64,000 nt of DNA from the NCBI GenBank assembly GCA_963770895.1, contig CAVYRF010000002.1:4000001-4064000 (forward strand). The letters run 5' to 3'. Every line of letters begins with the position of its first letter. Position 1 is the stretch's first letter. Origin of the DNA: an uncultured Acidobacteriota bacterium. GTDB taxonomy: Bacteria; Acidobacteriota; Thermoanaerobaculia; Multivoradales; UBA5704. Positions 24,769-39,213 of the stretch are shown piece after piece. Position numbers and translations under genes: made by a program. The notes beneath the pieces were generated by a model that saw only the letters and a program-made list of their open reading frames with translations, made no database searches and was not told where the DNA came from.

Positions 24769-27700
24769 CTACATCCGCGGCCGGTCGCGGCGGCGCGCCA
24801 GCAACGCCAGGCGCGCCACGGCGGCGGCGGCCAGGGCCAGGGCCAGGGCGGCCAGGCCGATGGGTGCAAGCGCCGGCACTTCGGCGATCGGCTGTCCGAT
24901 GGCGAAGGTGGTCGGCCCGCCGCCGTCGGGCGCGGCGGTCGGCAGCGTCGTGGTGTCGGTGCCGCTGCGCGCCGGATCGTAGGCGATGGTTGCCTGGTTG
25001 CTGACCAGCGAGCCGGCGACGGCGCCGCCGGCGGCGGTGGCGATGGTGGCGGCGATGGTGATGGTGACGGTGCCCCCCGCCGGCACGCCGCCGTTCCAGC
25101 GCACGGTGTTGCCGGCGGTCGTCACGGTGCCCAGGCTGGCGGTGGCGGCGACCAGGGTGAGCGGCGGCGGCAGCGTGTCCACCAGCTCGTCGCCGGGGTC
25201 GTCGAAGGTGGCGCCGGTGCCGCTGTTGGTCAGCGTGATGGTGTAGGTGACCGTGCCGCCGGGCTGGAGGTCGCCGCCGGTCACCGCCTTGATGGCGGTG
25301 AGGTGGGCGGCGAGCTGGGCGGGCGGGCGGCAGGCGGCCGGCGTGACCAGCAGCGAGAACGCCCGGATGCTGCCGGTGTCCTCGGGGTCGTGATCGACGG
25401 CGACGAGCTGCCACACTCCGTTGGGGTCCTCGCCCGCCAGGGCGGCCAGCGGGTTGTCGGGCAGCCAGCTGCCGGTGAACGGCGCCTGCGAGCTGTCGGC
25501 GGTCTGGATCGACGGCCCCGAGCTGGCGTCGTCGAGCACCACCTGGCAGAAGTTGTGGCCGTTCAGGTCGATCTGGTCGACGACGTGCACCCGCGTGCCG
25601 CGCGGCGACACCAGGTCGAAGCTGAGGTCGTTGACGAACGGGTGGTCGACGCCGACGGTGGTGGCGCCGATGGCGGTGGTGCAGGCCGCGCCGTCGATCC
25701 GGAAGACCAGCTTGGCGGTGTCGGCGCTCACGCCGCTCACCGTCAGCGACGCGATCGCCGGGGGGCCCGCGACGATGCTGCCGTCGCCGGCAAAGGTGGC
25801 GTCCGGGATTGGCACCACCGGCCCGCCGTAGCTGAAGGTGAGAGGCGCGGCCGGAGTGCCGGTGGTCAGGGCGAAGTTGAAGACGACGGGGGGCGCGCCG
25901 CCGGCGTAGGTCACGGTCAGGGTGAAATCGATGCGCTGGCCGCACGCCAGGCTATAGGGTGTGAACAGGAAAGGCTGCACGTTGGCGGCGCTGCCGCCGG
26001 CGGCGATGTCGGGATAGGGAGAGGCGGCGCTGGTCAGGCCGACGCCGGGGGTGCTGGTGGCGAGCGTGGCGGCGACCGCCTGCGCCGCCGCGCCGCCCAG
26101 GTTGGCGAGCGTGACGCTCAACCGGTAGTCGTCGCCGATGCCGATGCCGGGGTTGCCATCCGGCGTCACCTCGGTCGCGACCACCGGCCCCAGCGCCAGC
26201 GTGGGCCGCGGCTGGGCGCCGGCGGCCTGCAGCGACTGCTCGGTCATGACGATGCCGGCGCCGGTGTCGCGGTCGACGCCGGGGGCCTGGATGTCGATCG
26301 CGGAGCTGGTCAGGGCGGCGCGGACCTGGGCGGGGGTGAGGCCCGGCAGCGCCGCCGCCAGCAGGCCGGCGATGGCGGCGGCGTGCGGCGCCGCGGCCGA
26401 CGTGCCGTAGAAGCGGGCGTAGCTGGCGACGTCGGTGGACACCCCGTCGGCGGCGGTCAGGTCGGGCTTCTGCCGCACCACGCCGCCGGTCGAGGAGAAG
26501 TCGCCGGGGGGCGCGCCGGGCAGCAGGTTGCCATTGCCGTCGAAGAACACCCGGCGCGGGCCGTCGCAGGTGTACGGCTCGGCCAGCTGCGACGCGGTGA
26601 ACGGGCCGGGGTAGGGGCCGGCCGGATAGCCCGGCCCGGCGGCCGCCGACGACGGCGCCGCCGCCACGGCGATGGCGGGCGCCGCCGCGGCGTGGCCGCG
26701 GATGCAGCCGGCGGTCGCCAGCGCCAGGGTGCCGCGGAACGCCTGCAGGTCGAGCAGCCGCCCGGCGCCCGAAAACTGCGCCACGACCAGCCGGTCGCCG
26801 GCCGCGATCGGCGACGAAATCATCTCGAACGGGTCCTGGGTGCAGGTCTGGGAGTTGGTCGAGGCGTCGAGCACCGTGGTCAGGCCGGCATCCAGCAGGT
26901 ACAGGTCGTAGTCGTTGCACGACTGGCCCGCCGGGTCGTCCCACTGCAACACCGCATAGCGGGCGGCGGCGGTGGCGGCGTCGGATTGACCGCCGTCGCC
27001 AAAGTCGTTGACCGTGCCGGCGCCGGCGCCCAGCACCGGGTCCAGGTTGCCGTTGGGCTTGAAGTCGCCCTCCCAGGTGCCCGAGGTGCCGGCGTCCAGG
27101 TTGCCTTCGTTGCCGGCGGCGGAAAAGTAGAGAGCGCCCGCGGCGCTCGCCTGGATCACCGCCTGGGCGATGGCGGTGTCCTGAAACACCGCCTCGTCGG
27201 GATACGCCAGGTCGTCCACCAGGATGTTGCAGCCGGCGGCCTGCAGGTTGACGATGTTCTGGGCGAAGCTGGCGTCGCCGGCGCCGGCGGTGGCAAAGCC
27301 CAGCTGGGCGCCCGGCGCCAGGTCGTGCACGATCTCCAGCAGCGCCGTGCCCTCGTCGCCCTGCCCGCTCTGGCCCGGCAGCACGGCGACCGCCGGCGGC
27401 AGGTCGCCGCTGGCCTGCAGCGCCGCCAGCGAATCGATGCCGTCGGACAGCACGCAGATCTTGACGCCGCTGCCGTCGACGCCGAACTGCAACCGCGCCG
27501 GCGCCGCCAGGTGGGTGGCGTCCCCTTCCGAATCGACATGGGACAGGTTGGGGCGGCTGGCCGGCCGCACGAAGCGCACCGCCGGGTTGGCCGCCAGCGC
27601 TTCGATCGCGGCGAGCGGCAGGCGCGCGCGGATCGCCGCGTAGCGCAGCTGCGCCCCGGCGATGCGGCCGCCCAGGCCGCGCACCGCGGCGACAACCCCC

Positions 27701-28095
27701 TTGGCGGTCGCCCGCGAGGTGGCCTGGATGTCCACCAGCACGCCACCCTCCGCGTCGAGCGCCAAAGCCGCCAGCGGCCGCAGCTGCGGCACCGCGGCAA
27801 GCCGCGCGTCGCCGCGCTCGGCCATCAGCCCATAGATCAGGTGCGAATCCATCTTGCGCTGCGCCGGCGTCCGCGCCCGCTTTTCGGCGGCCAGCGCCTG
27901 CATCTGGGCGACCGCGCTGGCGGCCAGGCGAGGCTGTGCCGCCGGCGGGGCGCCCGCGGCAGCGGCAAGGGCGCCGCTGGCCCCAATGCCGCTCAAAGCG
28001 GCAAGAGCAAGCACGGCGCGAAGCCGGGAGGCGCGGCCAGGGTATGAAGAGATCAATCCGCCGGCAATGTAGCGAACCCTCGCCCGGACCGTCAA
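24769..28095 (-). CDS. Secreted S8/S53-like protease with P-domain, DUF11-like domain and IPTL-CTERM-like sorting tail
   Basis: VLSDG, DEGTA, AAGNEG, GTSAAAPH; HPFVNDL..DL.SP P-domain; VPAL + TM + RRR tail; start codon uncertain. Confidence 0.82.
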   Translation of the reverse strand: MTVRARVRYIAGGLISSYPGRASRLRAVLALAALSGIGASGALAAAAGAPPAAQPRLAASAVAQMQALAAEKRARTPAQRKMDSHLIYGLMAERGDARLAAVPQLRPLAALALDAEGGVLVDIQATSRATAKGVVAAVRGLGGRIAGAQLRYAAIRARLPLAAIEALAANPAVRFVRPASRPNLSHVDSEGDATHLAAPARLQFGVDGSGVKICVLSDGIDSLAALQASGDLPPAVAVLPGQSGQGDEGTALLEIVHDLAPGAQLGFATAGAGDASFAQNIVNLQAAGCNILVDDLAYPDEAVFQDTAIAQAVIQASAAGALYFSAAGNEGNLDAGTSGTWEGDFKPNGNLDPVLGAGAGTVNDFGDGGQSDAATAAARYAVLQWDDPAGQSCNDYDLYLLDAGLTTVLDASTNSQTCTQDPFEMISSPIAAGDRLVVAQFSGAGRLLDLQAFRGTLALATAGCIRGHAAAAPAIAVAAAPSSAAAGPGYPAGPYPGPFTASQLAEPYTCDGPRRVFFDGNGNLLPGAPPGDFSSTGGVVRQKPDLTAADGVSTDVASYARFYGTSAAAPHAAAIAGLLAAALPGLTPAQVRAALTSSAIDIQAPGVDRDTGAGIVMTEQSLQAAGAQPRPTLALGPVVATEVTPDGNPGIGIGDDYRLSVTLANLGGAAAQAVAATLATSTPGVGLTSAASPYPDIAAGGSAANVQPFLFTPYSLACGQRIDFTLTVTYAGGAPPVVFNFALTTGTPAAPLTFSYGGPVVPIPDATFAGDGSIVAGPPAIASLTVSGVSADTAKLVFRIDGAACTTAIGATTVGVDHPFVNDLSFDLVSPRGTRVHVVDQIDLNGHNFCQVVLDDASSGPSIQTADSSQAPFTGSWLPDNPLAALAGEDPNGVWQLVAVDHDPEDTGSIRAFSLLVTPAACRPPAQLAAHLTAIKAVTGGDLQPGGTVTYTITLTNSGTGATFDDPGDELVDTLPPPLTLVAATASLGTVTTAGNTVRWNGGVPAGGTVTITIAATIATAAGGAVAGSLVSNQATIAYDPARSGTDTTTLPTAAPDGGGPTTFAIGQPIAEVPALAPIGLAALALALAAAAVARLALLARRRDRPRM

Positions 28096-28350
28096 GGCGA
28101 GGGGGCTGGAAAAGGCTTTGGCCTCACCTGGCGGCCGCTGCTAGCAATACCACTGGCCGCAGTCCGTCGGGCGCCCGGCAATTCCTGTGGCCACGCCCAC
28201 ACGTGCCGGCGCCCGTCGCAGACCTTGGGAGTAAGCCCTGCGCCGGTGTCCCCCGCGGCAACGTCTGGCAAGCTGTTTCGAATCGAGAAAGGAGGACACC
28301 GGCGAAAGACGCGGTGCGGAATACGCCCTCAGCGGAAGGTCAGGTACGAC

Positions 28351-28694
28351 CTATCGTCCGAGCACGATGTCAATGCCGGGAGCACGAGGTCCAGCTGACG
28401 GTGTGCCAGCTTACCGGAACGTTCGGTTAGCTGCCCCTTGTCGAGGGCGACAATCAGCGAGACGTTTGCGACGGAGTCTGGCGACAGGCCCGTAGCTTTG
28501 GCGTTCAGCGGCACGTTGCCGGGAGCGTCTGCCCACTTCAAGTTGCTCGTCAGAGGCACCTATACAACTGTGCCGAGCCGGCTTCGATTCAGCGCATCGC
28601 ACTGGACGACGACGACCGGTCGCCGAAAACCAGGGCCTGACCCGGTCGGCTCCCCAAGGTCAGCCCACCAGACGTCACCCTGGCTGATCACCAC
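28351..28694 (-). pseudogene. mazF: MazF/PemK toxin pseudogene
   Basis: QGDVWWADL..P.GS.PGFRRPVVVVQ...VPLTSN; in-frame TAG at 28560-28562; an apparent 1-bp deletion near 28380 (restoring it gives LSGIDIVLGR-stop). Confidence 0.82.
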
Positions 28695-28769
28695 TCGATC
28701 TGTGCACGGCAGCTGACAATGCCCATCTGACCGCGCCCGCTGGTGACTATGCGCTACTGATTTCAAATG

Positions 28770-28798
28770 TTGACATCTGTTACTTGTTCGCGTAGCCT
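28770..28798 (+). promoter_or_regulatory. sigma70 promoter of the AKR-TetR pair
   Basis: TTGACA(28770-28775)-N17-TAGCCT(28793-28798); short palindrome ATGT-TG-ACAT over the -35; AAGGAG RBS before ATG 28864. Confidence 0.65.
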
Positions 28799-28863
28799 TG
28801 GCTTCATGGCAGCTTTCGCGGCCACATCTCGCCGGTCCAGGCCGGCGGCAAGGAGCAGAGACG

Positions 28864-29757
28864 ATGAGTGAAGCCAAGCTCGGAGGCCGGTTCACCTTCC
28901 CCGGCACCTCATTGACGGTTCAGCGGATGGGCTACGGCGCAATGCAGCTGGCTGGCCCTGGCGTGTGGGGGCCACCCAAGGATCCGGAGGGCGCCGTAGC
29001 CGTCCTCCGCGAGGCCGTGGCGGCCGGCGTAAACCATATCGATACGTCTGACTTCTATGGCCCCCACGTCACCAACCGGCTCATCCGGCAGGCTTTGCAT
29101 CCTTACCCGGAGGGGTTGGTGATCGTCACCAAGCTCGGAGCCCGCCGGCCCCCCGACCAGTCCTGGCAGCCAGCCATCTCGCCCGCAGAGCTGACCGCCG
29201 CCGTCCACGATAACCTCCGCAACCTGGGCTTGGAGGCGCTCGACGTCGTCAACTACCGCGCGATGGGGTCGGGCCAAGGCCCCGCGGAGGGGTCGATCGC
29301 CACGGAGATGACGGTGATGGCCGACCTGCGGCGCCAGGGGCTGATCCGACACGTCGGCCTGAGCAACGCCACGGCAGCCCAGGTAGCGGAGGCGCGGACG
29401 ATCACCGACATCGTTTGCGTGCAGAACCACTACAACCTGGCCCACCGCCACGACGACGGCCTGATCGACGACCTGGCCCGGCACGGCATCGCGTACGTGC
29501 CGTTCTTCCCGCTCGGCGGCTTCACGCCGTTGCAGTCGTCCAGTCTGTCGGAGGTCGCTGGCCGCCTGGAGGCCACGCCGATGCAGGTCGCGCTGGCTTG
29601 GCTGCTGCACCGTTCGCCCAACATCCTGTTGATTCCAGGCACGTCCTCGATCGCACACCTGCACCAGAACCTGGCTGCCGCGACGTTGACGCTGTCGGCG
29701 GAGACCCTGGCAACTCTGGACGGCATCGCCACCCCGGCGGCGGCAGCGAACCATTGA
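28864..29757 (+). CDS. Aldo/keto reductase (YdbC-like)
   Basis: MGYGAMQL, IDTSDFYG, IVTK, VGLSN, VQNHYN, LIPGTSSIAHL. Confidence 0.92.
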   Translation: MSEAKLGGRFTFPGTSLTVQRMGYGAMQLAGPGVWGPPKDPEGAVAVLREAVAAGVNHIDTSDFYGPHVTNRLIRQALHPYPEGLVIVTKLGARRPPDQSWQPAISPAELTAAVHDNLRNLGLEALDVVNYRAMGSGQGPAEGSIATEMTVMADLRRQGLIRHVGLSNATAAQVAEARTITDIVCVQNHYNLAHRHDDGLIDDLARHGIAYVPFFPLGGFTPLQSSSLSEVAGRLEATPMQVALAWLLHRSPNILLIPGTSSIAHLHQNLAAATLTLSAETLATLDGIATPAAAANH

Positions 29758-29778: not shown

Positions 29779-30381
29779 ATGCGCCCCGCTGACGCGCCTC
29801 TCACCCGCGATCGGATCCTGGCCACGGCCGAAGACGTCATCCGGCGCTTCGGCCCGGCCAAGGCGACCGTGGTGGACGTGGCCCGAGCGCTGGGAGTCAG
29901 CCACTCGGCCGTCTACCGTCACGTGGCGACCAAGGCCGAGCTGCGTGACCTGGTCGTCGGCCGCTGGCTGGAGGCGACCATGCCTCCGCTGCGGGCCATC
30001 GCCGCCCTGCCCGGCTCGGCCCCACGGCGGCTGCGCCAGCTGGTCGACACCCTGATCGCAATCAAGCGTCGCCGGGCCGACGACGACCCGGAGATCTTCG
30101 CCACCTATCTGACGCTGGCGGTCCATACCCAGTCCGTCGTCGCCGCCCACGTCGACGAGTTGGTCGGCCTGGCAGCGAGTGTCATCCGCTCGGGCGCGAA
30201 GGAAGGCACTTTCCGCGCCGTCGACCCCGTGGCCGCCGGTCGATCGGTACTGCTCGCCACGTCGCGGTTTCACCACCCCGCCCACGCTGCAGAGTGGCGC
30301 GACCCCGCCATCGACGCGAGGTACAACGACCTGTGGCAGCTGCTGATGGATGGACTGTGCGTGGCGAAGAGCCCCGGTTAG
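29779..30381 (+). CDS. TetR-family transcriptional regulator
   Basis: HTH TVVDVARALGVSHSAVYRH. Confidence 0.92.
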   Translation: MRPADAPLTRDRILATAEDVIRRFGPAKATVVDVARALGVSHSAVYRHVATKAELRDLVVGRWLEATMPPLRAIAALPGSAPRRLRQLVDTLIAIKRRRADDDPEIFATYLTLAVHTQSVVAAHVDELVGLAASVIRSGAKEGTFRAVDPVAAGRSVLLATSRFHHPAHAAEWRDPAIDARYNDLWQLLMDGLCVAKSPG

Positions 30382-30445: not shown

Positions 30446-30877
30446 CTAGCGCTCTCTCGTGCCGACCGCCTCGTTCACCAGCGTCCAATGCGCACCTTTG
30501 TCAGCCGATATTTCGAGCCGCGCCAGGTGTTTGTCGGCGGAGACGAAGGTATAGATCTCGCGCGCATCGGCCATGCCGCCACTCCGTCTGGGAATTTCAA
30601 AGGGCCTGGTCCAGACATTTCCATCGACATGCACGACCCCTTCGTGTGGCCCGCCTTCGAGAAACACGCCCGTATGTTTGAAAGTCTTGTCGACGTCGCT
30701 GTAATAGAAGATGGAGAGGTCGGTGGTGACGCGGCCGTCCTCGGGATCGGGCCGCAGACCCAGATAGTCGCAGACCATGAAGGCGCCGTGGGGAAGCACG
30801 GAACATTTCGCGTCGTAGTCTTCCGCTCTGGCATGGCCAAACTGCGTCTCTTTGGTCTCGATGTGTAGTGGCGGCAA
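30446..30877 (-). CDS. Hypothetical beta-rich protein (DUF1579-like), possibly 5'-truncated
   Basis: C-terminal EISADKGAHW pattern; TTG start without RBS, directly after a hairpin. Confidence 0.4.
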   Translation of the reverse strand: MPPLHIETKETQFGHARAEDYDAKCSVLPHGAFMVCDYLGLRPDPEDGRVTTDLSIFYYSDVDKTFKHTGVFLEGGPHEGVVHVDGNVWTRPFEIPRRSGGMADAREIYTFVSADKHLARLEISADKGAHWTLVNEAVGTRER

Positions 30878-30964: not shown

Positions 30965-33421
30965 TCAGAAGGTGTAGGTGACGTGGCCGGAGTATTCGCG
31001 CGGCGGGATGACGTGGGTGCCGCCGAAGGTGGACATGAAGTTGTAGAGGCCTTCCTTGTCGAAGGCGTTCAGCAGGTCGAACTGCACGTCGAGCGGCACG
31101 CCGTACTGCTTGAGGCGGGCGCCCAGGGAGAAGTCCCAGATGGTGCGCGACTTGACGCGCTGGGGGTTGGAGTCGAAGTTGATGTAGGGGAGCGCGTAGG
31201 CGGTGTCGGCGCCGCCGGCCAGGACGTCGGCGGGGGAGCCGGCATCGGTGACCAGGCCGGAGTCGAAGCGCTGGGTGACGCCGGCCCAATAGCCGGTCTG
31301 CGGGATGTCCCAGATGATGCCCAGCTGCTCCTGGATGTTCTGGTCGTGATCGATGACGAAGGGTCCCTGGTTGATGACGTCCACTTCGTCGGAGCTGAGG
31401 AACAGGCCGCCTTCAAACGGCGGCACGTAGATGGCGCGGACGTGGCCGACCGAGACGTAGCTGTGCAGGCCGTTCCAGGTGGCGGTGTCGAAGCGGACGT
31501 TCCAGCCGGACAGCTCGCCGCGCGCGAAGTTGAGCGGGAAGACGATGCCCGTGTTGAAGAACTGGTCCTGGTCGGCGGCGTTCTTGACCTGCCGCTTCCA
31601 GTAGGACACGTCCATGCGCAGCCATTTGCCGAGCCCCTGCTGAATGCCGTAGTTGTAGGCGTCGTGGCGCTCCGAGACGTTGAACAGGTTGCCGCCGCCC
31701 AGGTTGTGGTCCTGCTGCACGTCGGGCGGCGTGATCGCCGCCGCGGCGGCCGAGGACGACAGCAGGATGTTTTCGTATTCGGGGGTGATGAACATGCGAT
31801 CGAACGAGGCGCGCAGCACGGTCTTGGTGGTGGCGATGTAGTACGCCGCGCCCAGCCGCGGCTCCAGGTCGTCCTCGGTGAGGAAGAGGTGGTTGTTGTC
31901 GTAGCGCAGGCCGGCGTTGACGGTCAGGTTGCCCCAGTGCAGGGTGTCCTCGACGTAGGCGGCCTCGTAGGCGCCGGTCTTGGCGCCGTTGAACTCGAAC
32001 GGGTGGCCGCCGCGGGTGCCGTCATAGGGGACCAGGTTGGGGTTGTAACCGTCCGAGCCCGGCGCGTTGAGCGTCGGGTCGGTGATCAGGAACGAAAACT
32101 GCTCGTTGATCGGGAAGCGCTTGGCCTGGGCGCCGGCCTTGATCTCGTTGTTGGCGATGTCCTTGGTGAGCGAAAAGTTGAAGCCCTGGTTGTCCAGCGA
32201 GCGGTTTTGCGCCGCCAGGACCGGCGTGTCGTTGGGCGAGGAGAGCAGCTGCAGGTTGTTGTCGCGGGCATAGACCTGGGCTTCTCCCACCATGTCGCTG
32301 CCGAAGATGTGCAGGTAGTCGGCGTTGACGTTCCAATCGCGGGTGTGGACGCGTTCGTCCTGGCCGGCGGCCTCTTGCGAGGGGAGGTTGGTGACGTCGC
32401 GATCGGTCTGGCCGCCGTTGGTGGTGAGGCGGAAGGAGTCCTGCCCCTGGCCGTTGCCGGGCAGCAGGTCGTAGCGCAAGAAGCCGCGCAGGGTGTCGCC
32501 GTGATTGTTGAAGTTGTCGAACGTCACCGGGTCCAGGAAGCGGTTCGACTCCGAGCCGTCAAGGTTGAGGTACAGCCCCTGCTGCTTGCCGCCGTAGCCC
32601 AGGCCCAGGTCGGCGTCGTAGGTGTCGAAGCTGGCGGCGCCGGCGTTGACGTCGCCTTTGAACCCGTGCTGGCCCAGGGCGGAATGGGTGACCAGGTTGA
32701 TGACGCCGTACGCCTTTTCACCGTATTCCGCCGGCACGCCGCCGGTGGTGATCTCGATCCCCTGCAGGATCGCCGGGTTGAGGGAGTTCGAAAAGGTGAT
32801 GCCGACCTGGTCGCCGATCGGCTGGCCGTCGATCACCAGCAGCTGTTGCGAGTGGCCGCCCTGGAAGTGATAGCGGCCGTTTTCGTCCATGCTGAAGCCG
32901 GGCGCCGAAGTGACGATCGATTCGAAGGCGCGCGAGGGGACGACGGAGGGCATGCGCTGGATGAGCGACGAATCGATATCGGTGTGGGTCGTCACCTCGT
33001 CGCGCTCCAGCGCCACGGATTCCTTTTGCGCCGTCACGGTGGTGGTTTCGGCAAACGCCGCGGTGAGGCGCAGGTCGCGCTCGACGGGGAGGTTGCCGCG
33101 CACGTCCACGTCGACGTGGGTCTCCTTGAAGCCTTCGAGGAAGGCCGTCAGGTGATAGGGGTTGTTGGGGACGTTGTACAGAGTGAAGGAGCCGTCGGCG
33201 CCCGACACGGCCTGCTGCGAATAGCCGGTCAGGTCGTTGCTCAGCGAAACGGTGACGCCGGGGAGCGGTGAGTTGTCGGGGCCGAAGACATGGCCGCGAA
33301 CCTGGCCGGCCATGGCGGCGACCGGTGCGGCAAAGGATAGGACCAGCAGGCAGACGGCGGCGACGAAGCGTGCGGCAATCGGGCGCCGCGCGCCGGCGGC
33401 GACCGTGAACGGATCAAGCAT
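30965..33421 (-). CDS. TonB-dependent receptor with N-terminal carboxypeptidase-regulatory-like domain
   Basis: Signal peptide; plug motifs IDGQPI and GGVPAEYG...GVINL; GLRYD; terminal TYTF; GGAGG RBS. Confidence 0.9.
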   Translation of the reverse strand: MLDPFTVAAGARRPIAARFVAAVCLLVLSFAAPVAAMAGQVRGHVFGPDNSPLPGVTVSLSNDLTGYSQQAVSGADGSFTLYNVPNNPYHLTAFLEGFKETHVDVDVRGNLPVERDLRLTAAFAETTTVTAQKESVALERDEVTTHTDIDSSLIQRMPSVVPSRAFESIVTSAPGFSMDENGRYHFQGGHSQQLLVIDGQPIGDQVGITFSNSLNPAILQGIEITTGGVPAEYGEKAYGVINLVTHSALGQHGFKGDVNAGAASFDTYDADLGLGYGGKQQGLYLNLDGSESNRFLDPVTFDNFNNHGDTLRGFLRYDLLPGNGQGQDSFRLTTNGGQTDRDVTNLPSQEAAGQDERVHTRDWNVNADYLHIFGSDMVGEAQVYARDNNLQLLSSPNDTPVLAAQNRSLDNQGFNFSLTKDIANNEIKAGAQAKRFPINEQFSFLITDPTLNAPGSDGYNPNLVPYDGTRGGHPFEFNGAKTGAYEAAYVEDTLHWGNLTVNAGLRYDNNHLFLTEDDLEPRLGAAYYIATTKTVLRASFDRMFITPEYENILLSSSAAAAAITPPDVQQDHNLGGGNLFNVSERHDAYNYGIQQGLGKWLRMDVSYWKRQVKNAADQDQFFNTGIVFPLNFARGELSGWNVRFDTATWNGLHSYVSVGHVRAIYVPPFEGGLFLSSDEVDVINQGPFVIDHDQNIQEQLGIIWDIPQTGYWAGVTQRFDSGLVTDAGSPADVLAGGADTAYALPYINFDSNPQRVKSRTIWDFSLGARLKQYGVPLDVQFDLLNAFDKEGLYNFMSTFGGTHVIPPREYSGHVTYTF

Positions 33422-33631
33422 GAGACCTCCAAGGGCGGTGCGCGTCCGCGTCGGCGCGGGCCTGCCGCGGCGGCGAACACGTCGTGCAGCGTGGCTCGCA
33501 TGGCTCCGCGCGTCACGCCGAATGCGCGACGGCGCGGCCGCGCACGCGCCGGATACGCCATCGGGCGTACAGGCGGGCGCTGGGGTCCGGCAGTTGTCCG
33601 GACAGCCGCTGAAATGGGAAGAGCCGGGAGG

Positions 33632-34060
33632 TCAGGCGAAAGGCGGGGCGCGCGCGCCGTCAGGACGCAGCGAGCGCAGCAGCGGCGAAGCCGCGACGGC
33701 GGGAGGCAGCGAGTGGTCGGCCAGCCCGATCGAAAGCGCCGCGCCGCGCCCCGGCTGGGCGCCGAAACCGTTCAAGCGATTCAGGCAGACGGCGCAGATC
33801 GGGCGCTGCACCGGCGTCGCGTTTTCGGCGTGCGCCGGCTGCACGGGGTGGCTGGCACCCTGGAAAAACGTTTCGTCATGGTGGCCGGCGAGTGCCGCAA
33901 GCGGTTCCGACGCCTCGTTGGCCGGGTGGATCTCCAGCCCGCCGCCGAGCACCGTCGCCGCCAGCAGCGCCGCAACGGCCGCCTGGGCGATCACCCAGGC
34001 GCGGCCGCCGCGTCCGCGGCGTCGCAAGGTCCCGGCACCGCCGGGAAGCATCTCCATCAT
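33632..34060 (-). CDS. DUF2946-like leader protein (signal/TM, His-rich, CxxC, C-terminal RAPP)
   Basis: Hydrophobic N-terminus, HHDE, CAVC, ends GARAPPFA-stop; directly upstream of and co-directional with the receptor. Confidence 0.78.
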   Translation of the reverse strand: MMEMLPGGAGTLRRRGRGGRAWVIAQAAVAALLAATVLGGGLEIHPANEASEPLAALAGHHDETFFQGASHPVQPAHAENATPVQRPICAVCLNRLNGFGAQPGRGAALSIGLADHSLPPAVAASPLLRSLRPDGARAPPFA

Positions 34061-34069
34061 GGCGCCGAG

Positions 34070-34078
34070 ATGCTAACA
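34070..34078 (-). promoter_or_regulatory. Extended -10 element (TGnTAGCAT) of the leader ORF, near-leaderless transcript
   Basis: Minus strand TGTTAGCAT ends 9 nt before ATG 34060; no SD. Confidence 0.45.
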
Positions 34079-34145
34079 GAAACCCGCCGGTGACGAAAAT
34101 CTATCTGCGCCGCTCGTGGCGCCGGTCGTCCAACTTTGCCGTAGG

Positions 34146-36443
34146 ATGATGGGAATGCTTGTCAAAGGCTTGCTTGGCGGACGGGGTGCCGCGCCGGCGC
34201 GGGGAGCGGTGCTGGGGCGGCGGCTCGTCCTCGCGCTGGGGGTCGGGCTCGGTCTGAGCGGCCCCATGGCTGTTGCGGCGACGGCGGCCAGCGCCGCGGC
34301 GGCCGGCAGCGCGGCAGCGGGGGCAGAGCGCGCGGTTGCGGCGCAGTTTCCGGCCGGCCGGCTGCCGGTGATCGCGCCGCAGGGCCTGGCGCAGATTGCC
34401 GGTCTGCTGGCGGAGAAGGCGCGGCGCACGCCGGCCCAGGCGAAGCTCGATTCGCACCTGCTGTACGCGGTCAGGGCGGCGCGCGGCGAAGCGCCGGCGG
34501 CGGGGGTCGATCTGCGGCGGGCGATGGCGGCGACGGTCGGGGTCGATGCGCGGCAGCGGGTGGCGGTGGAGGTGCGAGGCGAGGTGGGCGGCGCGCTGCT
34601 CGGGGCGCTGGCGGGGCTGGGGGCCGAAAGTGTTGTGGCGCACGCTGAGCTCGGTTCGCTGCGGGCGAGCCTGCCGCTGGCGCGGCTGGAAGAAGCGGCG
34701 GCGCTGCCGGGGGTGCGGTTCATCGGGCCGCTGCCGCAGCGATCGGCGGCCGCCGGCCCGGATGGGAGCGGCGACGTCGCCCATGCGGCGAACCTGGTGC
34801 GGGTGGATGCAGGCATCGCCGGCGCCGGCGTCAGGGTGGGGGTGATCTCGACCGGGGTCACCTCGCTCGCGGCGCAGCAGGCCGCGGGATCGCTGCCGGG
34901 CAACGTGACGGTGCTGCCCGGCCTGGCCGGCAGCGGTGACGAGGGGACGGCGGTCCTGGAGGTGATCTACACCCTGGCGCCGGCGGCGCAGCTCTACTTT
35001 GCGACCAGCGGCGCCACCGACGCCGACATGGCGGCGGCGATCGCGGCGCTGCAGGCGGCTGGCTGCCAGATCATCGTCGACGACATCACTTTCTACGACG
35101 AGCCGGCGTTTCAGGATGGCCCCATCGCGCAAGCGGTGGATGCCTTCACCAACGGCGGCGGCCTGTACGTGTCGTCGGCGGGCAACGACGGCAACCTGGA
35201 CAGCGGCACGGCGGGCGTCTGGGAGGGCGATTTTGTCGCCGCCACGGCGTCGATCGCGGCGGTCAGCGCCAGCGACACCGGGGTTTTGCACAGCTTCGGC
35301 GCCGCCGACCATGCGACGCTGGTCGCGGGCACCAAGGCCTGGACCACGCTCGAATGGTCGGATCCCCTGGGCGCCTCCGCCAACGACTACGACCTGTTCC
35401 TGCTGAGCGGCGACCTGACGACGGTGATCGACTACTCGACCAACGTCCAGAACGGCACCCAGGACCCGTACGAGCACGTCGGCACCACCAGCGCCGGCGA
35501 GGCGCTGGTCGTCGTGCAGCACAACGGCGCGGCGCGCTACCTGCGGCTGGCCGCCAACCTGGGCCGGCTGAGCCCCGCCACCGCCGGCGCCACGGCGGGC
35601 CACAACGGCGGCGCCGCCACGGTGTCGGTCGCGGCGGTCAACGTCACGTATGCCGGCGGCGGGGCGTTCGCCGCGGCCGATGCCGCGCCGATCGCCAGCT
35701 ACAGCTCCGACGGGCCGCGCCGCCTCTTTTTCACCCCGGCGGGGGCGGCGATCACGCCCGGCAACTTCCTGGCGGCCAGCGGCGGCGGCAGCGTCCTGCC
35801 CAAGGTGGACCTGACTGCGGCCACCTGCGTGCCGACCACCGTCACCGGCTACGCCCAGCTCTGCGGCACCTCGGCCGCCGCACCGCACGTGGCGGCGATC
35901 GGCGCGCTGGCCTTGTCGCTGCCCAGCCACCCCTCGCCCGCCCAGGTGCGGGTGGCCCTGGAGCAGTCGGCGCTCGACATGGGCGCCGCCGGCTTCGACC
36001 GCGACTGGGGTCACGGCATCGCCATGGCCGACGCCACCATCGGCTACCTGGCCGCGCCGCCGGCGGTGCGCTTCTACACCGTCACCCCCTGCCGCGCGGT
36101 CGATACCCGCACCGCGGCCGGCCCGCTGGGCGGCCCGGCGCTGCAAGCGAACGCGGTGCGAGCGTTCACCCTGACCGGCGCCTGCGGCATCCCCGCCGGC
36201 GCCAAGGCCGTCGCCGCCAACGTCACGGTCGTGGTGCCCGGCGCCGCCGGCGACCTGCGCTTCTATGCCGGCGACGACAGCGTGGCGCCGCTCGCGAGCA
36301 CCATCAACTTTGGCGCCGGCGCCCTGCTGGCCAACAACGCCATGCTGCAGCTGGCCCACGACGGCAGCGGCACCGTCAACGTGCAATCCGATGCCACCGC
36401 GCCGGTCGATCTGCTGATCGACGTCAACGGCTACTACCAGTAG
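34146..36443 (+). CDS. Secreted S8/S53-like protease paralog with C-terminal PCRxxDTR beta-domain
   Basis: EKARRTPAQAKLDSHL prodomain shared with 24769-28095; DEGTA, SAGNDG, GTSAAAPH; tail FYTVTPCRAVDTR...IDVNGYYQ. Confidence 0.82.
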   Translation: MMGMLVKGLLGGRGAAPARGAVLGRRLVLALGVGLGLSGPMAVAATAASAAAAGSAAAGAERAVAAQFPAGRLPVIAPQGLAQIAGLLAEKARRTPAQAKLDSHLLYAVRAARGEAPAAGVDLRRAMAATVGVDARQRVAVEVRGEVGGALLGALAGLGAESVVAHAELGSLRASLPLARLEEAAALPGVRFIGPLPQRSAAAGPDGSGDVAHAANLVRVDAGIAGAGVRVGVISTGVTSLAAQQAAGSLPGNVTVLPGLAGSGDEGTAVLEVIYTLAPAAQLYFATSGATDADMAAAIAALQAAGCQIIVDDITFYDEPAFQDGPIAQAVDAFTNGGGLYVSSAGNDGNLDSGTAGVWEGDFVAATASIAAVSASDTGVLHSFGAADHATLVAGTKAWTTLEWSDPLGASANDYDLFLLSGDLTTVIDYSTNVQNGTQDPYEHVGTTSAGEALVVVQHNGAARYLRLAANLGRLSPATAGATAGHNGGAATVSVAAVNVTYAGGGAFAAADAAPIASYSSDGPRRLFFTPAGAAITPGNFLAASGGGSVLPKVDLTAATCVPTTVTGYAQLCGTSAAAPHVAAIGALALSLPSHPSPAQVRVALEQSALDMGAAGFDRDWGHGIAMADATIGYLAAPPAVRFYTVTPCRAVDTRTAAGPLGGPALQANAVRAFTLTGACGIPAGAKAVAANVTVVVPGAAGDLRFYAGDDSVAPLASTINFGAGALLANNAMLQLAHDGSGTVNVQSDATAPVDLLIDVNGYYQ

Positions 36444-36607: not shown

Positions 36608-38320
36608 ATGAGCAAACGTAGGAACGAGGCCGGCGCGTCGAGCTCCATCGGCTTTCCCAGCTCGAGCGTCGCCACCTTGGGGCTATGGGCGTACCTGATC
36701 GTTTTCGGCGGCGGCTGCCTGGCCTTGTATTATCAGAGAATCCATTACATCCCGGAGCTGCATTGGGAAGATGCTCTGAGCGAGCTGTTTGTCCTGTCGA
36801 TCCTGGGCGGCTGCGTCTGGATCTTGTTCGGGCTGCTTCTGTTTCTGCCGGGTGCGATCTGGTCGCGAGAGCTGATATGGGATAACACGCTCCGCGACGT
36901 GCTGTGCTTCAACGGTGACGAGAAGGCCAGGGAGCCCTGCCTGTCCAGCATCTGGAGGAGCGTCGGGATGCCGTTCGCGGTGTACATGGGCTGCGCTCAC
37001 CTCGGCCTCATTTTGGGCAGGATCTGGCTGTGCGTCGCCTGCCCGGTGGGATTCGTGCTCGCCCTCTGGCTCTGCCTGCGCGAAATGCGCGCCGACCTTG
37101 GCTACCCGCGCACCCACCCCAAAAGGTGGCCCTGGCTGCTGACTGCCTGGCGCGACCCTGACGCCTCTCCGCAGCTTGCGGCCGGGTACGCCACAGCCGG
37201 CGACACGCAGGCGGTGGAGCTCACCGAGGCGACGGGCGCCCCGGCAGGCCAGGAGCCCACGGTTGACAAAACAGCGCCGCCCCACTCGCGGTTGTCGAAA
37301 TATTTGTTTTGGTTCGGTATCTCGATGGCGCTCGGTTCGATGTCGTTGTTGATCGACTTTGCCCTGAGCGGGAGGCAGAGCATGCGTGATTGGAAGCTCG
37401 CCCTCATCTGCACTGCTGTGATCATTTGCGCCAATCTTGGCGTCGCGCTGCGCTTTAAATCGCATCCACCGTCCGCCGTCGGCATCAGCGTCGTGGCCGG
37501 CCTGGCGTTGCTGGTGGTTGGGGAGGCAATCGAAGACAGGAACAGCATGTTGTGCCGGACCATGGAGGCCTTCGGCGTCGGCGACGACACCAAGGTTTCT
37601 TTTACGGTGAAGGCAGGGTATCGCGACGTGCTGTGCGGGTTACAAATCCCCTTTCACCAGGTGGGCGGGCCGCAAGGAGCGCTGGTCATCCGCAACGCCG
37701 CGATGCTGTCGCGGCTCGGCGTCAATTACTTTGCGCGCGCCGGTGACCGGCAGTTCCAGCTGCCGAAGACGGAGGTCCTGTCATGGTCCGCGATGACCGA
37801 TTCCACCGTCGCCCTGCGGCGGCGACACCGCGACGCCGATATCGCTATCCAATCTGGCCGGGTCTTTGCCGACAAGATCGTATTTGCGAATGAAGCCGCC
37901 GAGGTCACGACGGATAACTCCCAGGTGCAGCTCCTGGCGCGATGGGAGTCCGACGTGATGCCGGAGCTGGTACATCTTGAAGTCTGCGGCGACCAGAGGT
38001 GCTTGTACCTGGCGCCGGCATCAGGGAATGAGGAACTTCAACCGGCCTTGGATAGCTGTGTCTCAGGCGCGGGCAAGCCGCCGGCCACTGCCACGGCTGC
38101 GACGACGGCCACGGCTGCGGCCACGGCCACGGCCGAGACCGCGAATCTGTACAGCGCCGGCTTCCCTATAAAAAGGGAGGTCGTTCCATGCAAGGCGGTC
38201 TGGAACGGGCACCTTGGCGCATGGCAGGTCGCCTCTATCGGTGGTCTCGCTCCAGGGGAATATGGTCTGTGGAACCCGAGAAGTGGCGACTTCGCGGCAT
38301 TTGCGGTGGGCGCTCCGTGA
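36608..38320 (+). CDS. Hypothetical multi-TM membrane protein with C-terminal soluble domain
   Basis: GGAGG RBS; about 7 hydrophobic segments; lower-GC codon usage. Confidence 0.6.
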   Translation: MSKRRNEAGASSSIGFPSSSVATLGLWAYLIVFGGGCLALYYQRIHYIPELHWEDALSELFVLSILGGCVWILFGLLLFLPGAIWSRELIWDNTLRDVLCFNGDEKAREPCLSSIWRSVGMPFAVYMGCAHLGLILGRIWLCVACPVGFVLALWLCLREMRADLGYPRTHPKRWPWLLTAWRDPDASPQLAAGYATAGDTQAVELTEATGAPAGQEPTVDKTAPPHSRLSKYLFWFGISMALGSMSLLIDFALSGRQSMRDWKLALICTAVIICANLGVALRFKSHPPSAVGISVVAGLALLVVGEAIEDRNSMLCRTMEAFGVGDDTKVSFTVKAGYRDVLCGLQIPFHQVGGPQGALVIRNAAMLSRLGVNYFARAGDRQFQLPKTEVLSWSAMTDSTVALRRRHRDADIAIQSGRVFADKIVFANEAAEVTTDNSQVQLLARWESDVMPELVHLEVCGDQRCLYLAPASGNEELQPALDSCVSGAGKPPATATAATTATAAATATAETANLYSAGFPIKREVVPCKAVWNGHLGAWQVASIGGLAPGEYGLWNPRSGDFAAFAVGAP

Positions 38321-38519
38321 ACTGACCGGCCAATCGCCATTAGCTCAGCCTCGCCGAGCGCACTCCCTCGCCGCACGCCGCCAGCATCACCAAACCGTCG
38401 CTCGTGCGCCAGGGGGCGGTGCCAGGGGCGCGCACCACCGCCGTACGGCTGGGAAGCAGGCCAGCTTTCCGCTACGATGCAGGCGGGGTGGGAGCGCGAG
38501 GCGGGGGCGGCGCGATGCG

Positions 38520-38876
38520 ATGGCGGCGGAGATCCTGCGCCAGGGGGCTGAAAGAGTGATTAGGCACATTGCCACGAGTTCGTCTCTCGACTTTGACCTG
38601 GATCGGCTCAACGAATTTTGCCGGCGTTGGAGCGTCACTGAGCTGGCGCTCTTCGGCTCCGTTCTGCGCGCCGATTTTGGACCCGAGAGTGACGTGGATG
38701 TCCTGGTCACCTTTGCGGCTGATTCGCCCTGGACCCTGTGGGACCTCTCCAGGATGCGGATCGACCTGGAATCCATCTTTGGCCGGGCGATAGATCTGGT
38801 CGAAAAAAAGGCATTGCGCAATCCGTATCGGAGGCGGGCCATCCTCGCTGATCATCAGGTCCTCTATGCATCCTGA
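38520..38876 (+). CDS. mntA: MNT nucleotidyltransferase antitoxin
   Basis: GSVLRADFGPESDVD = GSX10DXD; start codon uncertain (38520 or 38556). Confidence 0.85.
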   Translation: MAAEILRQGAERVIRHIATSSSLDFDLDRLNEFCRRWSVTELALFGSVLRADFGPESDVDVLVTFAADSPWTLWDLSRMRIDLESIFGRAIDLVEKKALRNPYRRRAILADHQVLYAS

Positions 38877-39213
38877 TCGAGATCGGGCATGCCTCTGGGA
38901 CATGCTGAAGGCTGCCCAGGGACTTGCGTCTTCATTGCGCGGGCTGACCTTCGCGCAGTATGCCAGCGACGAAAACCTTCGTATGGCGACGGAACGCAGG
39001 ATCGAAATCATTGGCAAAGCGGCGCGCCGCATCTCCACGGAGCGTAAGGAATCTCATCCAGAGATCCCTTGGCGCCTGATCGTCGATCAGCGCAACGTGC
39101 TGATTCACGCCTATGACGAGATCGACAACGAGCGGATCTGGGCGTTGGCAGAGAAAGACATCCCGCGCTTGGCACAGCAACTCACAGCGCTTGTCCCACC
39201 TGACGAGGTGTGA
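38866..39213 (+). CDS. hepT: HEPN (DUF86) RNase toxin
   Basis: RNVLIHAY = RX4HXY; HPEIPW; overlaps the MNT gene. Confidence 0.88.
   Translation: MHPDRDRACLWDMLKAAQGLASSLRGLTFAQYASDENLRMATERRIEIIGKAARRISTERKESHPEIPWRLIVDQRNVLIHAYDEIDNERIWALAEKDIPRLAQQLTALVPPDEV

Follow-up and report, generated by a model that had tools for sequence, protein, structure and literature searches.

The window analysed here, a 64,000-nt stretch of the genome of an uncultured bacterium of the Acidobacteriota (assembly GCA_963770895.1, contig CAVYRF010000002.1), carries on its minus strand a 142-aa open reading frame (ORF; 34060..33632 including the stop codon, from the ORF list) with the architecture of an arrest leader of the CruR/CutF kind. 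The next gene, whose start lies 210 nt after the leader stop, encodes an 818-aa TonB-dependent-type outer-membrane receptor with an N-terminal CarboxypepD_reg domain (30965..33421, minus strand). The stop region of the leader is complementary to the receptor gene's Shine-Dalgarno (SD) sequence, and such complementarity recurs in different sequence variants at homologous loci. We consider it likely that this pairing is a functional mask of the ribosome-binding site (RBS). We also lean towards a full model of the CutF/SecM type, in which the mask would be opened by a ribosome stalled at the RAPP motif of the leader and closed after its release. Stalling itself and the assignment of its two states to ON and OFF are suggested by analogy with the known systems; that a metal serves as the signal, again by analogy, is an even call.

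According to the proposed mechanism, the 142-aa ORF would be a CruR/CutF-type regulatory leader with an arrest motif, RAPP, two codons before its stop. With no ribosome at the leader 3' end, 33633-33627 would pair with the SD at 33430-33424 and close the spacer, and receptor translation would be low. A RAPP-stalled ribosome would prevent this helix and the SD would be free while the arrest lasts (ON). Upon release of the arrest, the ribosome would terminate and leave and the helix would re-form (OFF). Analogy with CruR suggests that this release would be triggered when a metal binds to the CxxC/His region of the nascent chain. The same C-rich tract may also act as a Rho utilization (rut) site, in which case Rho termination would reinforce the OFF state.

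The leader stop codon and the receptor SD are complementary in the window

A previous sequence-only reading of this locus had proposed that GACCUCC (33633-33627) is exactly complementary to the receptor SD, GGAGGUC (33430-33424), with about 196 nt between the two arms. Both statements were confirmed on the minus strand. The sequence that such a helix would enclose is GC-rich, measures 196 nt (33626-33431) and has predicted local hairpins of its own in the centroid structure. The leader ends with CGC GCC CCG CCU UUC GCC UGA, that is, R137, A138, P139, P140, F141, A142 and stop, and the first two bases of the anti-SD arm are the GA of this UGA stop codon (33634-33632). On the receptor side, the SD arm is followed by UC and then by the ATG at 33421. 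The SD, counted as 4 nt from this start codon, scores -9.9 kcal/mol against a generic anti-SD motif.

Counting both strands, the window contains 13 copies of the heptamer GACCTCC (9.96 ± 3.1 in shuffles), so that about 0.002 copies would be expected in 22 nt at the stop and about 0.02 across the spacer. When the 22-nt stop window was shuffled, a duplex with the SD of the same quality arose in 4/1000 cases and, in a second run, in 1/500, and 0/429 other 22-nt windows from the last 300 nt of the leader and the spacer paired with the SD as well as the stop window. For a genome background, we took 516 tandem gene pairs of the window's genome (ORFs of at least 120 codons, a filter on GC content at third codon positions, a start at least 60 nt after the stop, best SD), 3.9% of which had a complementary run of at least 7 bases and 2.7% an energy equal to or better than that of the window. 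By itself, the match in the window is unusual but not compelling. The earlier argument had been that a 7-bp match may be chance while its position speaks for function; comparison with homologous loci supports the pairing.

Four DNA runs were further compared on 33380-33700. In a low-depth contig of a close strain both arms are unchanged, the rest being partly without cover; it differs from the window by four substitutions inside the spacer and by a single-base insertion immediately 5' of the SD. The unchanged arms are uninformative because only about 0.3 arm changes are expected, too few for a test of covariation.

Complementarity is conserved across homologous loci

Homologous loci were collected from the genomes of relatives, public genome contigs and metagenome contigs, the leader stop was located in each, and the downstream start was taken as the one with the best SD. 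This yielded 83 leader-gene units, 67 of them non-identical. Sixty were used, in which the SD scored -7 kcal/mol or better and the leader stop and the downstream start were separated by at least 60 nt. The pairing register shifts between clades, and complementarity was therefore measured without alignment, as the contiguous complement (Watson-Crick plus GU) between a 22-nt stop window (-8..+13) and a 9-nt SD core. A complement of at least 6 bases was present in 52/60 loci compared with 11.6% of the background pairs, one of at least 7 bases in 36/60 compared with 3.9%, and one of at least 8 bases in 16/60 compared with 1.4%. The mean energy of the duplex between stop window and SD was -10.5 kcal/mol in the 60 loci and -6.2 kcal/mol in the 516 background pairs. 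Complementarity between stop region and SD is thus a conserved family trait, far above the genome background. The spacer varies freely in sequence and in length (69-347 nt from leader stop to downstream start) while its two ends stay complementary.

Three arrangements were found. In 30 loci including the window, GGAGG(U[C/U]) is matched by UGA-CCUCC. In 16 loci, (U)CAGGAGA is matched by UCUCC-UGA with 8-11 perfect pairs, and the arm consists of the stop codon and the two codons before it, which encode (L/F/V)-S in every case; examples are L061, with 11 bp between UCUCCUGAUCU and AGAUCAGGAGA, and L077, with 9 bp between GUCUCCUGA and UCAGGAGAC. The third arrangement, GGG(G)AGA with UGA-N-CUCU(U)CCCC, is present in 11 loci. 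When stop regions and SDs were permuted among loci, native pairs gave -14.06 and permuted ones -11.96 ± 0.32, and 0/5000 permutations were as low; permutation within one SD variant left a weak margin (-13.61 ± 0.23, 133/5000). A smaller permutation test on 26 loci gave -15.2 for native pairs and -13.3 ± 0.49 for permuted ones (0/10000). The base after GGAGGU points in the same direction, being C or U in 16/16 family loci, where it pairs with the G of UGA, compared with G in 37/75 and C or U in 29/75 at other sites of the genome. A G at this position extends the pairing of the SD to the tail of the 16S rRNA.

In canonical DUF2946 loci (the family of CruR) of other Acidobacteriota, complementarity is weak (-1.4 to -6.3 kcal/mol) in 4/5 parsed, and stop/SD complementarity is therefore a trait of the present leader family and not of RxPP leaders as such. 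The canonical DUF2946 leaders at L096 and L098 (G452 and G408), also from other Acidobacteriota, have RGPP with five further residues and CC/CPCC motifs and are without stop/SD complementarity. The gene after them has an N-terminus which, judged by eye, we take to be PepSY_TM-like.

Composition, descent and Rho-dependent attenuation

Several observations weigh against a masked RBS opened by a stalled ribosome, and they concern the composition and kinship of the loci, the geometry of the ribosome and the folding of the RNA. As to composition, a shuffled CU-rich stop window pairs as well as the native one in 34/60 loci, and the stop window is the single best partner of the SD in only 7/26 loci, a median of 6.6% of windows pairing equally well. 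As to kinship, the p-values overstate the case because the loci are kin. Covariation, an earlier proposed check, is present in that each of three SD variants is accompanied by a stop region that fits it, but independent events are few because most of the covariation falls between these three inherited SD variants and small extensions of them. In addition, the genome background of 516 pairs rests on crude ORF calling.

Composition is also the core of the first rival explanation, Rho-dependent attenuation only, as in CruR. The C-rich, G-poor stop tract would be the rut site, its complementarity to the SD would be a by-product of composition, and the stalled ribosome would block Rho loading or the access of Rho to RNA polymerase. 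The result with shuffled stop windows (34/60) fits this explanation, as does the strongest C-over-G excess of the leader-spacer mRNA at 33670-33571 (C/G 1.9-2.1 in 60-nt windows), a candidate rut region on the minus strand (33571..33670) that reaches from the arrest site across the stop codon into the spacer, of which it takes in the first ~60 nt. Across the family, the median C/G is 2.0 at the stop region versus 1.09 in the rest of the spacer and exceeds 1.5 at the former in 44/47 loci. The window's genome has rho (716.7 bits, above the cut-off), and Rho dependence has been demonstrated for CruR (PMC9426467).

Several features are nevertheless left unexplained by composition, namely the 8-11 bp perfect complements including the stop codon in the AGGAGA group (0-2/500 in shuffles), the 7 bp of the window (1/500), the shift from G to C/U after GGAGGU (16/16 versus 29/75) and the matching of the three SD variants. 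Moreover, the distance from leader stop to downstream start goes down to 69-90 nt, which leaves little room for termination before the next gene. As the only mechanism, Rho-dependent attenuation is unlikely in our judgement. Rho loading accounts for the CU-richness of the tract and can coexist with RBS masking, the two not being exclusive.

Ribosome geometry and folding predictions

The sequence-only reading had placed RAPP two codons before the stop, and this was borne out: the motif, invariant in our alignment of homologues, comprises R137-A138-P139-P140 (codons at 33641..33652, minus strand) and is followed by a two-residue tail. From the toeprinting of CruR and the structures of ApdA/ApdP we infer that a ribosome arrested here would have the P-site codon at 33646-33644 and the A-site codon at 33643-33641. 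Counted from the first P-site base (33646), the U of the stop codon is +12 and the anti-SD arm extends from +13 to +19. The ribosome keeps mRNA single-stranded to about +15 in its entry channel, according to structural and toeprint work. The stalled ribosome had been said to cover the anti-SD; with a reach of about +15, that is, to 33631, it covers three of the seven bases and not all of them, and the claim is to be corrected accordingly. A ribosome stalled with P139 in the P site would remove 3/7 pairs and leave four flush against the 30S subunit. Across the 60 loci, the 5' arm has a median start of +13 (range +4 to +21) and a median end of +19; it starts at or before +15 in 44/60, whereas the other 16/60 have a core arm that begins past +15, where the stalled ribosome would not reach it.

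The folding predictions were equivocal. Folding 33400-33660, which had been proposed as a check, gave a minimum free energy structure without the helix and a centroid structure with it, and this 261-nt stretch is no more stable than its shuffles (z = -0.17). The probability of the helix depends on where the modelled RNA begins and ranges from 0.01 to 0.78, being ~0.77 when it begins at the stop codon, 0.31-0.35 from 33640, 33660 or 34060 (the leader start), and 0.01-0.08 from 33700, 33760 or 33900. The SD is mostly paired in every modelled state (mean unpaired probability 0.05-0.20), without a clear switch; its alternative partners in the folds are early receptor codons (33407-33411), the spacer (33582-33585) and the leader (33862-33864). 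Among 26 loci, the probability of pairing between SD and stop window is below 0.5 in 14, including the window with 0.05, and above 0.5 in 12. Modelling of ribosome occlusion varies with the chosen 5' end and with whether the block ends at +12 or +15: a block at 33634 gives a helix probability of 0.77 and a block at 33631 gives 0, so the modelled outcome hinges on about 3 nt. Thermodynamic folding of the window, as modelled here, neither confirms nor excludes the helix.

RNAalifold, applied to 14 close loci of the window's own clade (from 26 non-identical ones), did not recover the stop:SD helix, because the pairing register slides by 2 columns between clades. Its preferred pairing, CGGCGCC:GGCGCCG, is invariant but does not occur in the window. 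In the window's sister clades (alignment columns 6-12 with 352-358, loci L003-L037), the D-G-A codons of the arrest region, CGGCGCC, have their complement in an invariant GGCGCCG that precedes the receptor start by ~45 nt, and a second GGGAG is present ~20 nt upstream of the SD; this GGGAG is likewise absent from the window. The CGGCGCC:GGCGCCG pairing or the second GGGAG may represent an extra or alternative mask under the stalled ribosome. Taken together, the SecM-like logic of the sequence-only reading stands in part. Conserved complementarity, RAPP, CxxC, the spacing and the precedents speak for it, while folding gives no freed SD in the stalled state and the ribosome covers 3/7 bases.

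The same geometry allows a reversed logic, in which the helix is real but a RAPP-stalled ribosome would abut it without melting it, remove competing upstream sequence and so stabilise the mask, making stall OFF and release ON. The helix at +13 would then resemble a frameshift-stimulating structure, and terminating ribosomes would sweep the arm and expose the SD placed beside the stop codon. When everything up to 33634 is held single-stranded, the helix probability is 0.77, versus 0.02 without constraint (311 nt, 33700-33390), and the arm lies at +13 to +19 in both the GGAGG and the GGGAGA groups, as this logic would have it. In CutF, moreover, a metal induces the stall (10.1101/2025.02.05.636593), a polarity which, for an importer, would need stall to be OFF. 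But the single-stranded stretch to about +15 takes away 3/7 bp, the block at 33631 abolishes the modelled helix, and the arm of the AGGAGA group, at +7/+10 to +13/+18, lies largely inside the stalled ribosome although the same receptor type is downstream. On this evidence we regard the reversed logic as improbable.

A chance match, or inherited sequence without function in a GC-rich genome rich in SD-complementary 7-mers, is very improbable: 3-4% of this genome's tandem gene pairs reach the window's value and the folding is equivocal, but complementarity in 52/60 loci versus 11.6% of the background, a spacer interior that varies freely while the ends stay complementary in different sequence variants, and 0/5000 permutations all argue against it.

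The leader belongs to a family beside DUF2946

The leader protein has no Pfam or NCBIfam match. Of 55 homologues found, 12 appeared truncated or had an odd length and were set aside, and the other 43 were aligned. Invariant in this alignment are H45, C89, C92, G100, G135, R137, A138, P139 and P140, and the family C-terminus reads RPDGARAPPxx-stop. The CxxC codons of the window, C89-A-V-C92 (33785..33796, minus strand), are thus invariant in 43/43. A hydrophobic N-terminal segment at residues ~22-41 (AWVIAQAAVAALLAATVLGG; 33938..33997, minus strand, from the translation) is also conserved in the alignment and is probably a signal or anchor sequence. A search of 1.84 billion representatives with the family profile returned 148 proteins. 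In 143 of these, CxxC is followed after 43-47 residues (44 in 132) by R[AGS]PP and then by 1-7 residues to the end (2 in 96), the arrest motif being RAPP in 80, RGPP in 57 and RSPP in 6.

The Pfam model of DUF2946, PF11162 (gathering score 23.7 bits), does not match the window protein even at E ≤ 10, and a scan of its own genome misses the locus. Among the 43 close homologues there were 6 weak matches (best E 0.0068), and among the 148 representatives 13 at E ≤ 0.01, weak over the full model, with one passing (P0193, 26.9 bits). Because the window protein is below the PF11162 threshold and few relatives match, and those weakly, the leader family appears from these profile scores to be a remote sister group of DUF2946/CruR and not a member by the curated threshold. 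It does share the traits of DUF2946/CruR proteins: the CXXC, the C-terminal RAPP, a spacing of 44 residues (expected ~45 ± 1-2), and a putative operon context of 210 nt followed by a CarboxypepD_reg plus Plug receptor. The leader family is common in Thermoanaerobaculia. Its profile matched 61/92 genomes from the taxonomic family to which the window belongs, single genomes having as many as 5 copies and the window's own having one; canonical DUF2946 is present in 6/401 sampled Acidobacteriota genomes. Among the literature matches listed, no paper joined DUF2946 or CruR with Acidobacteria, a look that does not extend to supplementary tables, which possibly name the family.

Comparison with known arrest leaders

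The closest known arrangement is CruR (Bp2923) of Bordetella pertussis, a protein of 145 aa with CXXC at 90-93 and RAPP at 139-142, a spacing of 45 residues and a GC-rich intergenic region of 162 bp, followed by the TonB-dependent transporter BfrG (PMC9426467). RAPP and CXXC are both required for copper control of this transporter, the rut site was mapped to a C-over-G region, and copper-relieved stalling causes Rho termination (PMC9426467). In vitro, CruR arrests when one of the two Pro codons occupies the P site and the other the A site (PMC12992588). In the window as in CruR-BfrG, the leading gene encodes a protein of roughly 145 aa that carries a hydrophobic segment at its N-terminus (an export signal in CruR), CXXC (here at 89-92) and RAPP near the C-terminus (137-140 plus 2 residues, compared with 3 residues after it in CruR; spacing 44 versus 45). 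Further likenesses are the long GC-rich intergenic region (here 210 nt), the TonB-dependent transporter as the next gene and the C-over-G tract near the leader end. The two differ in that the window protein lacks a PF11162 match and Acidobacteriota are not named in the survey text of the CruR report as far as it was available (PMC9426467). The output of CruR is Rho termination, with no anti-SD/SD pairing mentioned in the available part of that report; the receptor here contains CarboxypepD_reg, and a PepSY gene was not recognised downstream of it.

The masking side of the model has its nearest counterpart in CutF-CutO of Rhodobacter capsulatus, in which CutF is no longer needed once the anti-SD of the stem-loop between cutF and cutO is mutated (PMC9973294). 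CutF is an exported leader and, like the one described here, has Cys residues in a metal motif and prolines in an arrest motif at the C-terminus; the anti-SD in its intergenic RNA masks the next SD, with a stalled ribosome proposed to open the mask (PMC9973294). The motifs themselves differ, CxxxC and PPP in CutF (PMC9973294) in place of CxxC and RAPP, and the cutF-cutO stem-loop is local whereas the arms in the window are 196 nt apart and the 5' arm starts inside the stop codon. Moreover, the target of CutF is a detoxifying oxidase that is switched on by copper-induced stalling, while here it is an importer-type receptor; because of this target, a sensor polarity opposite to that of CutF, as in CruR, would be expected.

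As in SecM-SecA and ApdA/ApdP (PMC10951233), the arrest site is a few codons before the stop, and in those systems the stalled ribosome unmasks a downstream SD. They monitor Sec/YidC activity and precede sec or yidC genes, in contrast to the leader described here, which has conserved Cys and His and is located ahead of receptor or metal-transport genes. Upstream ORFs (uORFs) with RAPP or RGPP ahead of TonB-dependent receptors have been reported to be general in Gram-negative bacteria (PMC12992588), and the present family, with RAPP, RGPP or RSPP ahead of TonB-type receptors, resembles them; it may already be counted there in its Thermoanaerobaculia members, although no RNA pairing is described for those uORFs in the part of the report that was available.

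Control of a masked SD by an arrest leader is thus established for SecM and for the DUF2946-like CutF, and no new principle is revealed by the window locus. The leader here belongs to a sister family in Acidobacteriota that stays under the Pfam threshold, and its mask would be a long-range helix whose 5' arm starts in or just before the stop codon. Two experimentally studied DUF2946 leaders differ in output (Rho termination in CruR, an anti-SD stem in CutF) and in sensor polarity, and the window locus and about 60 relatives join a CruR-like leader and target with what would be a CutF-like RBS mask, in a phylum and a family missed by the Pfam model. They offer a comparative handle on which parts of the mechanism are general, on how arrest site, stop codon and mask are placed relative to one another (three arrangements, between +7 and +19 nt from the P site) and on whether a single C-rich element serves both RBS masking and the loading of Rho. 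They also flag a set of acidobacterial outer-membrane receptors as probably metal-regulated.

Downstream genes and copies of the leader

Twenty-two downstream ORFs of relatives were picked for diversity from the 67 non-identical loci. Thirteen are of the same receptor type as that of the window, one is a ZnuA, one an OEP and one a Crp-like protein (possibly a wrong start call), and 6 are without a family. The ZnuA and OEP contexts, together with the conserved Cys/His residues of the leader, fit a link to metal. At two loci, L018 (G001:C262) and L019 (G003:C5), the gene after a paralogous leader (CxxC, 44 residues, RAPP, LA, stop) encodes a periplasmic metal-binding protein of the ZnuA type (PF01297, 7.7e-48), and an ABC ATPase-like ORF comes next. 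In L018, UCUUCGA in the stop region is complementary to UCGAAGA, which is located between the SD and the ATG. L020 (G013:C531) has two leader copies ~6 kb apart on one contig, one of them ahead of an OEP (TolC-like) efflux protein, for which the opposite regulatory polarity would be expected. Two leader-receptor units stand back to back and divergent at L010 (G017:C488), and contig C489 of G061 has four leader-like matches within ~4 kb. The leader cassette appears to duplicate locally.

These contexts raise the further, tentative idea of a portable sensor-switch cassette. It would consist of Thermoanaerobaculia-centred leaders of ~105-165 aa and a stop-codon/SD helix across a variable spacer of 70-350 nt, in up to five copies per genome, ahead of importers (TonB-type receptors and a ZnuA-type binding protein) and of an efflux component (OEP), with masking combined with Rho loading on the same C-rich tract. 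Since such a cassette would stand ahead of both importers and an efflux component, paralogues would have to differ in metal specificity or polarity.

Other features of the locus and its surroundings

The receptor protein matches CarboxypepD_reg at 7.6e-14 and Plug at 8.5e-5 (23.5 bits, just below the cut-off of 23.9), and it matches TIGR01783 weakly (34.7 bits, cut-off 223.5). A minus-strand ORF at 33241-33561 overlapping the spacer and the receptor start was set aside, being Arg/Pro-rich, off-frame and overlapping the signal-peptide region of the receptor. Rfam gave no family match in 33000-34400 at E ≤ 1, the two matches obtained being at chance level and outside both arms. No promoter-like site was found in 33200-34400, and the one terminator-like site in that region, at 34097-34083 upstream of the leader, is no more than shuffles yield.

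The gene upstream of the leader is divergent from it. This gene (34116-36443, plus strand, 775 aa; Peptidase_S8, 1.8e-15), which leaves only ~55 nt for both promoters, and another at 24769-28095 (minus strand, 1108 aa) are two very large secreted subtilase-like ORFs that flank the locus. A 143-aa ORF on the same strand as the receptor (30446-30877, minus strand), 88 nt after the receptor stop, falls into no Pfam or NCBIfam family, lacks an obvious signal peptide and may be a third gene of the operon. Further downstream are a TetR-family regulator (29779-30381, plus strand; TetR_C_27, 1.1e-34) and an adjoining ORF (28798-29757, plus strand) which, by eye, we take to be aldo/keto-reductase-like. 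Two small gene pairs, at 28329-28907 (minus strand) and 38214-39213 (plus strand), presumably are toxin-antitoxin modules, which their translations resemble. The 28560-28907 peptide of the former has a stretch, 'GDVWWADL...PVVVVQ', that we take to be MazF/PemK-like, and at ~38.4-39.2 kb a presumed nucleotidyltransferase-like ORF overlaps a presumed DUF86/HEPN-like ORF by a few bases.

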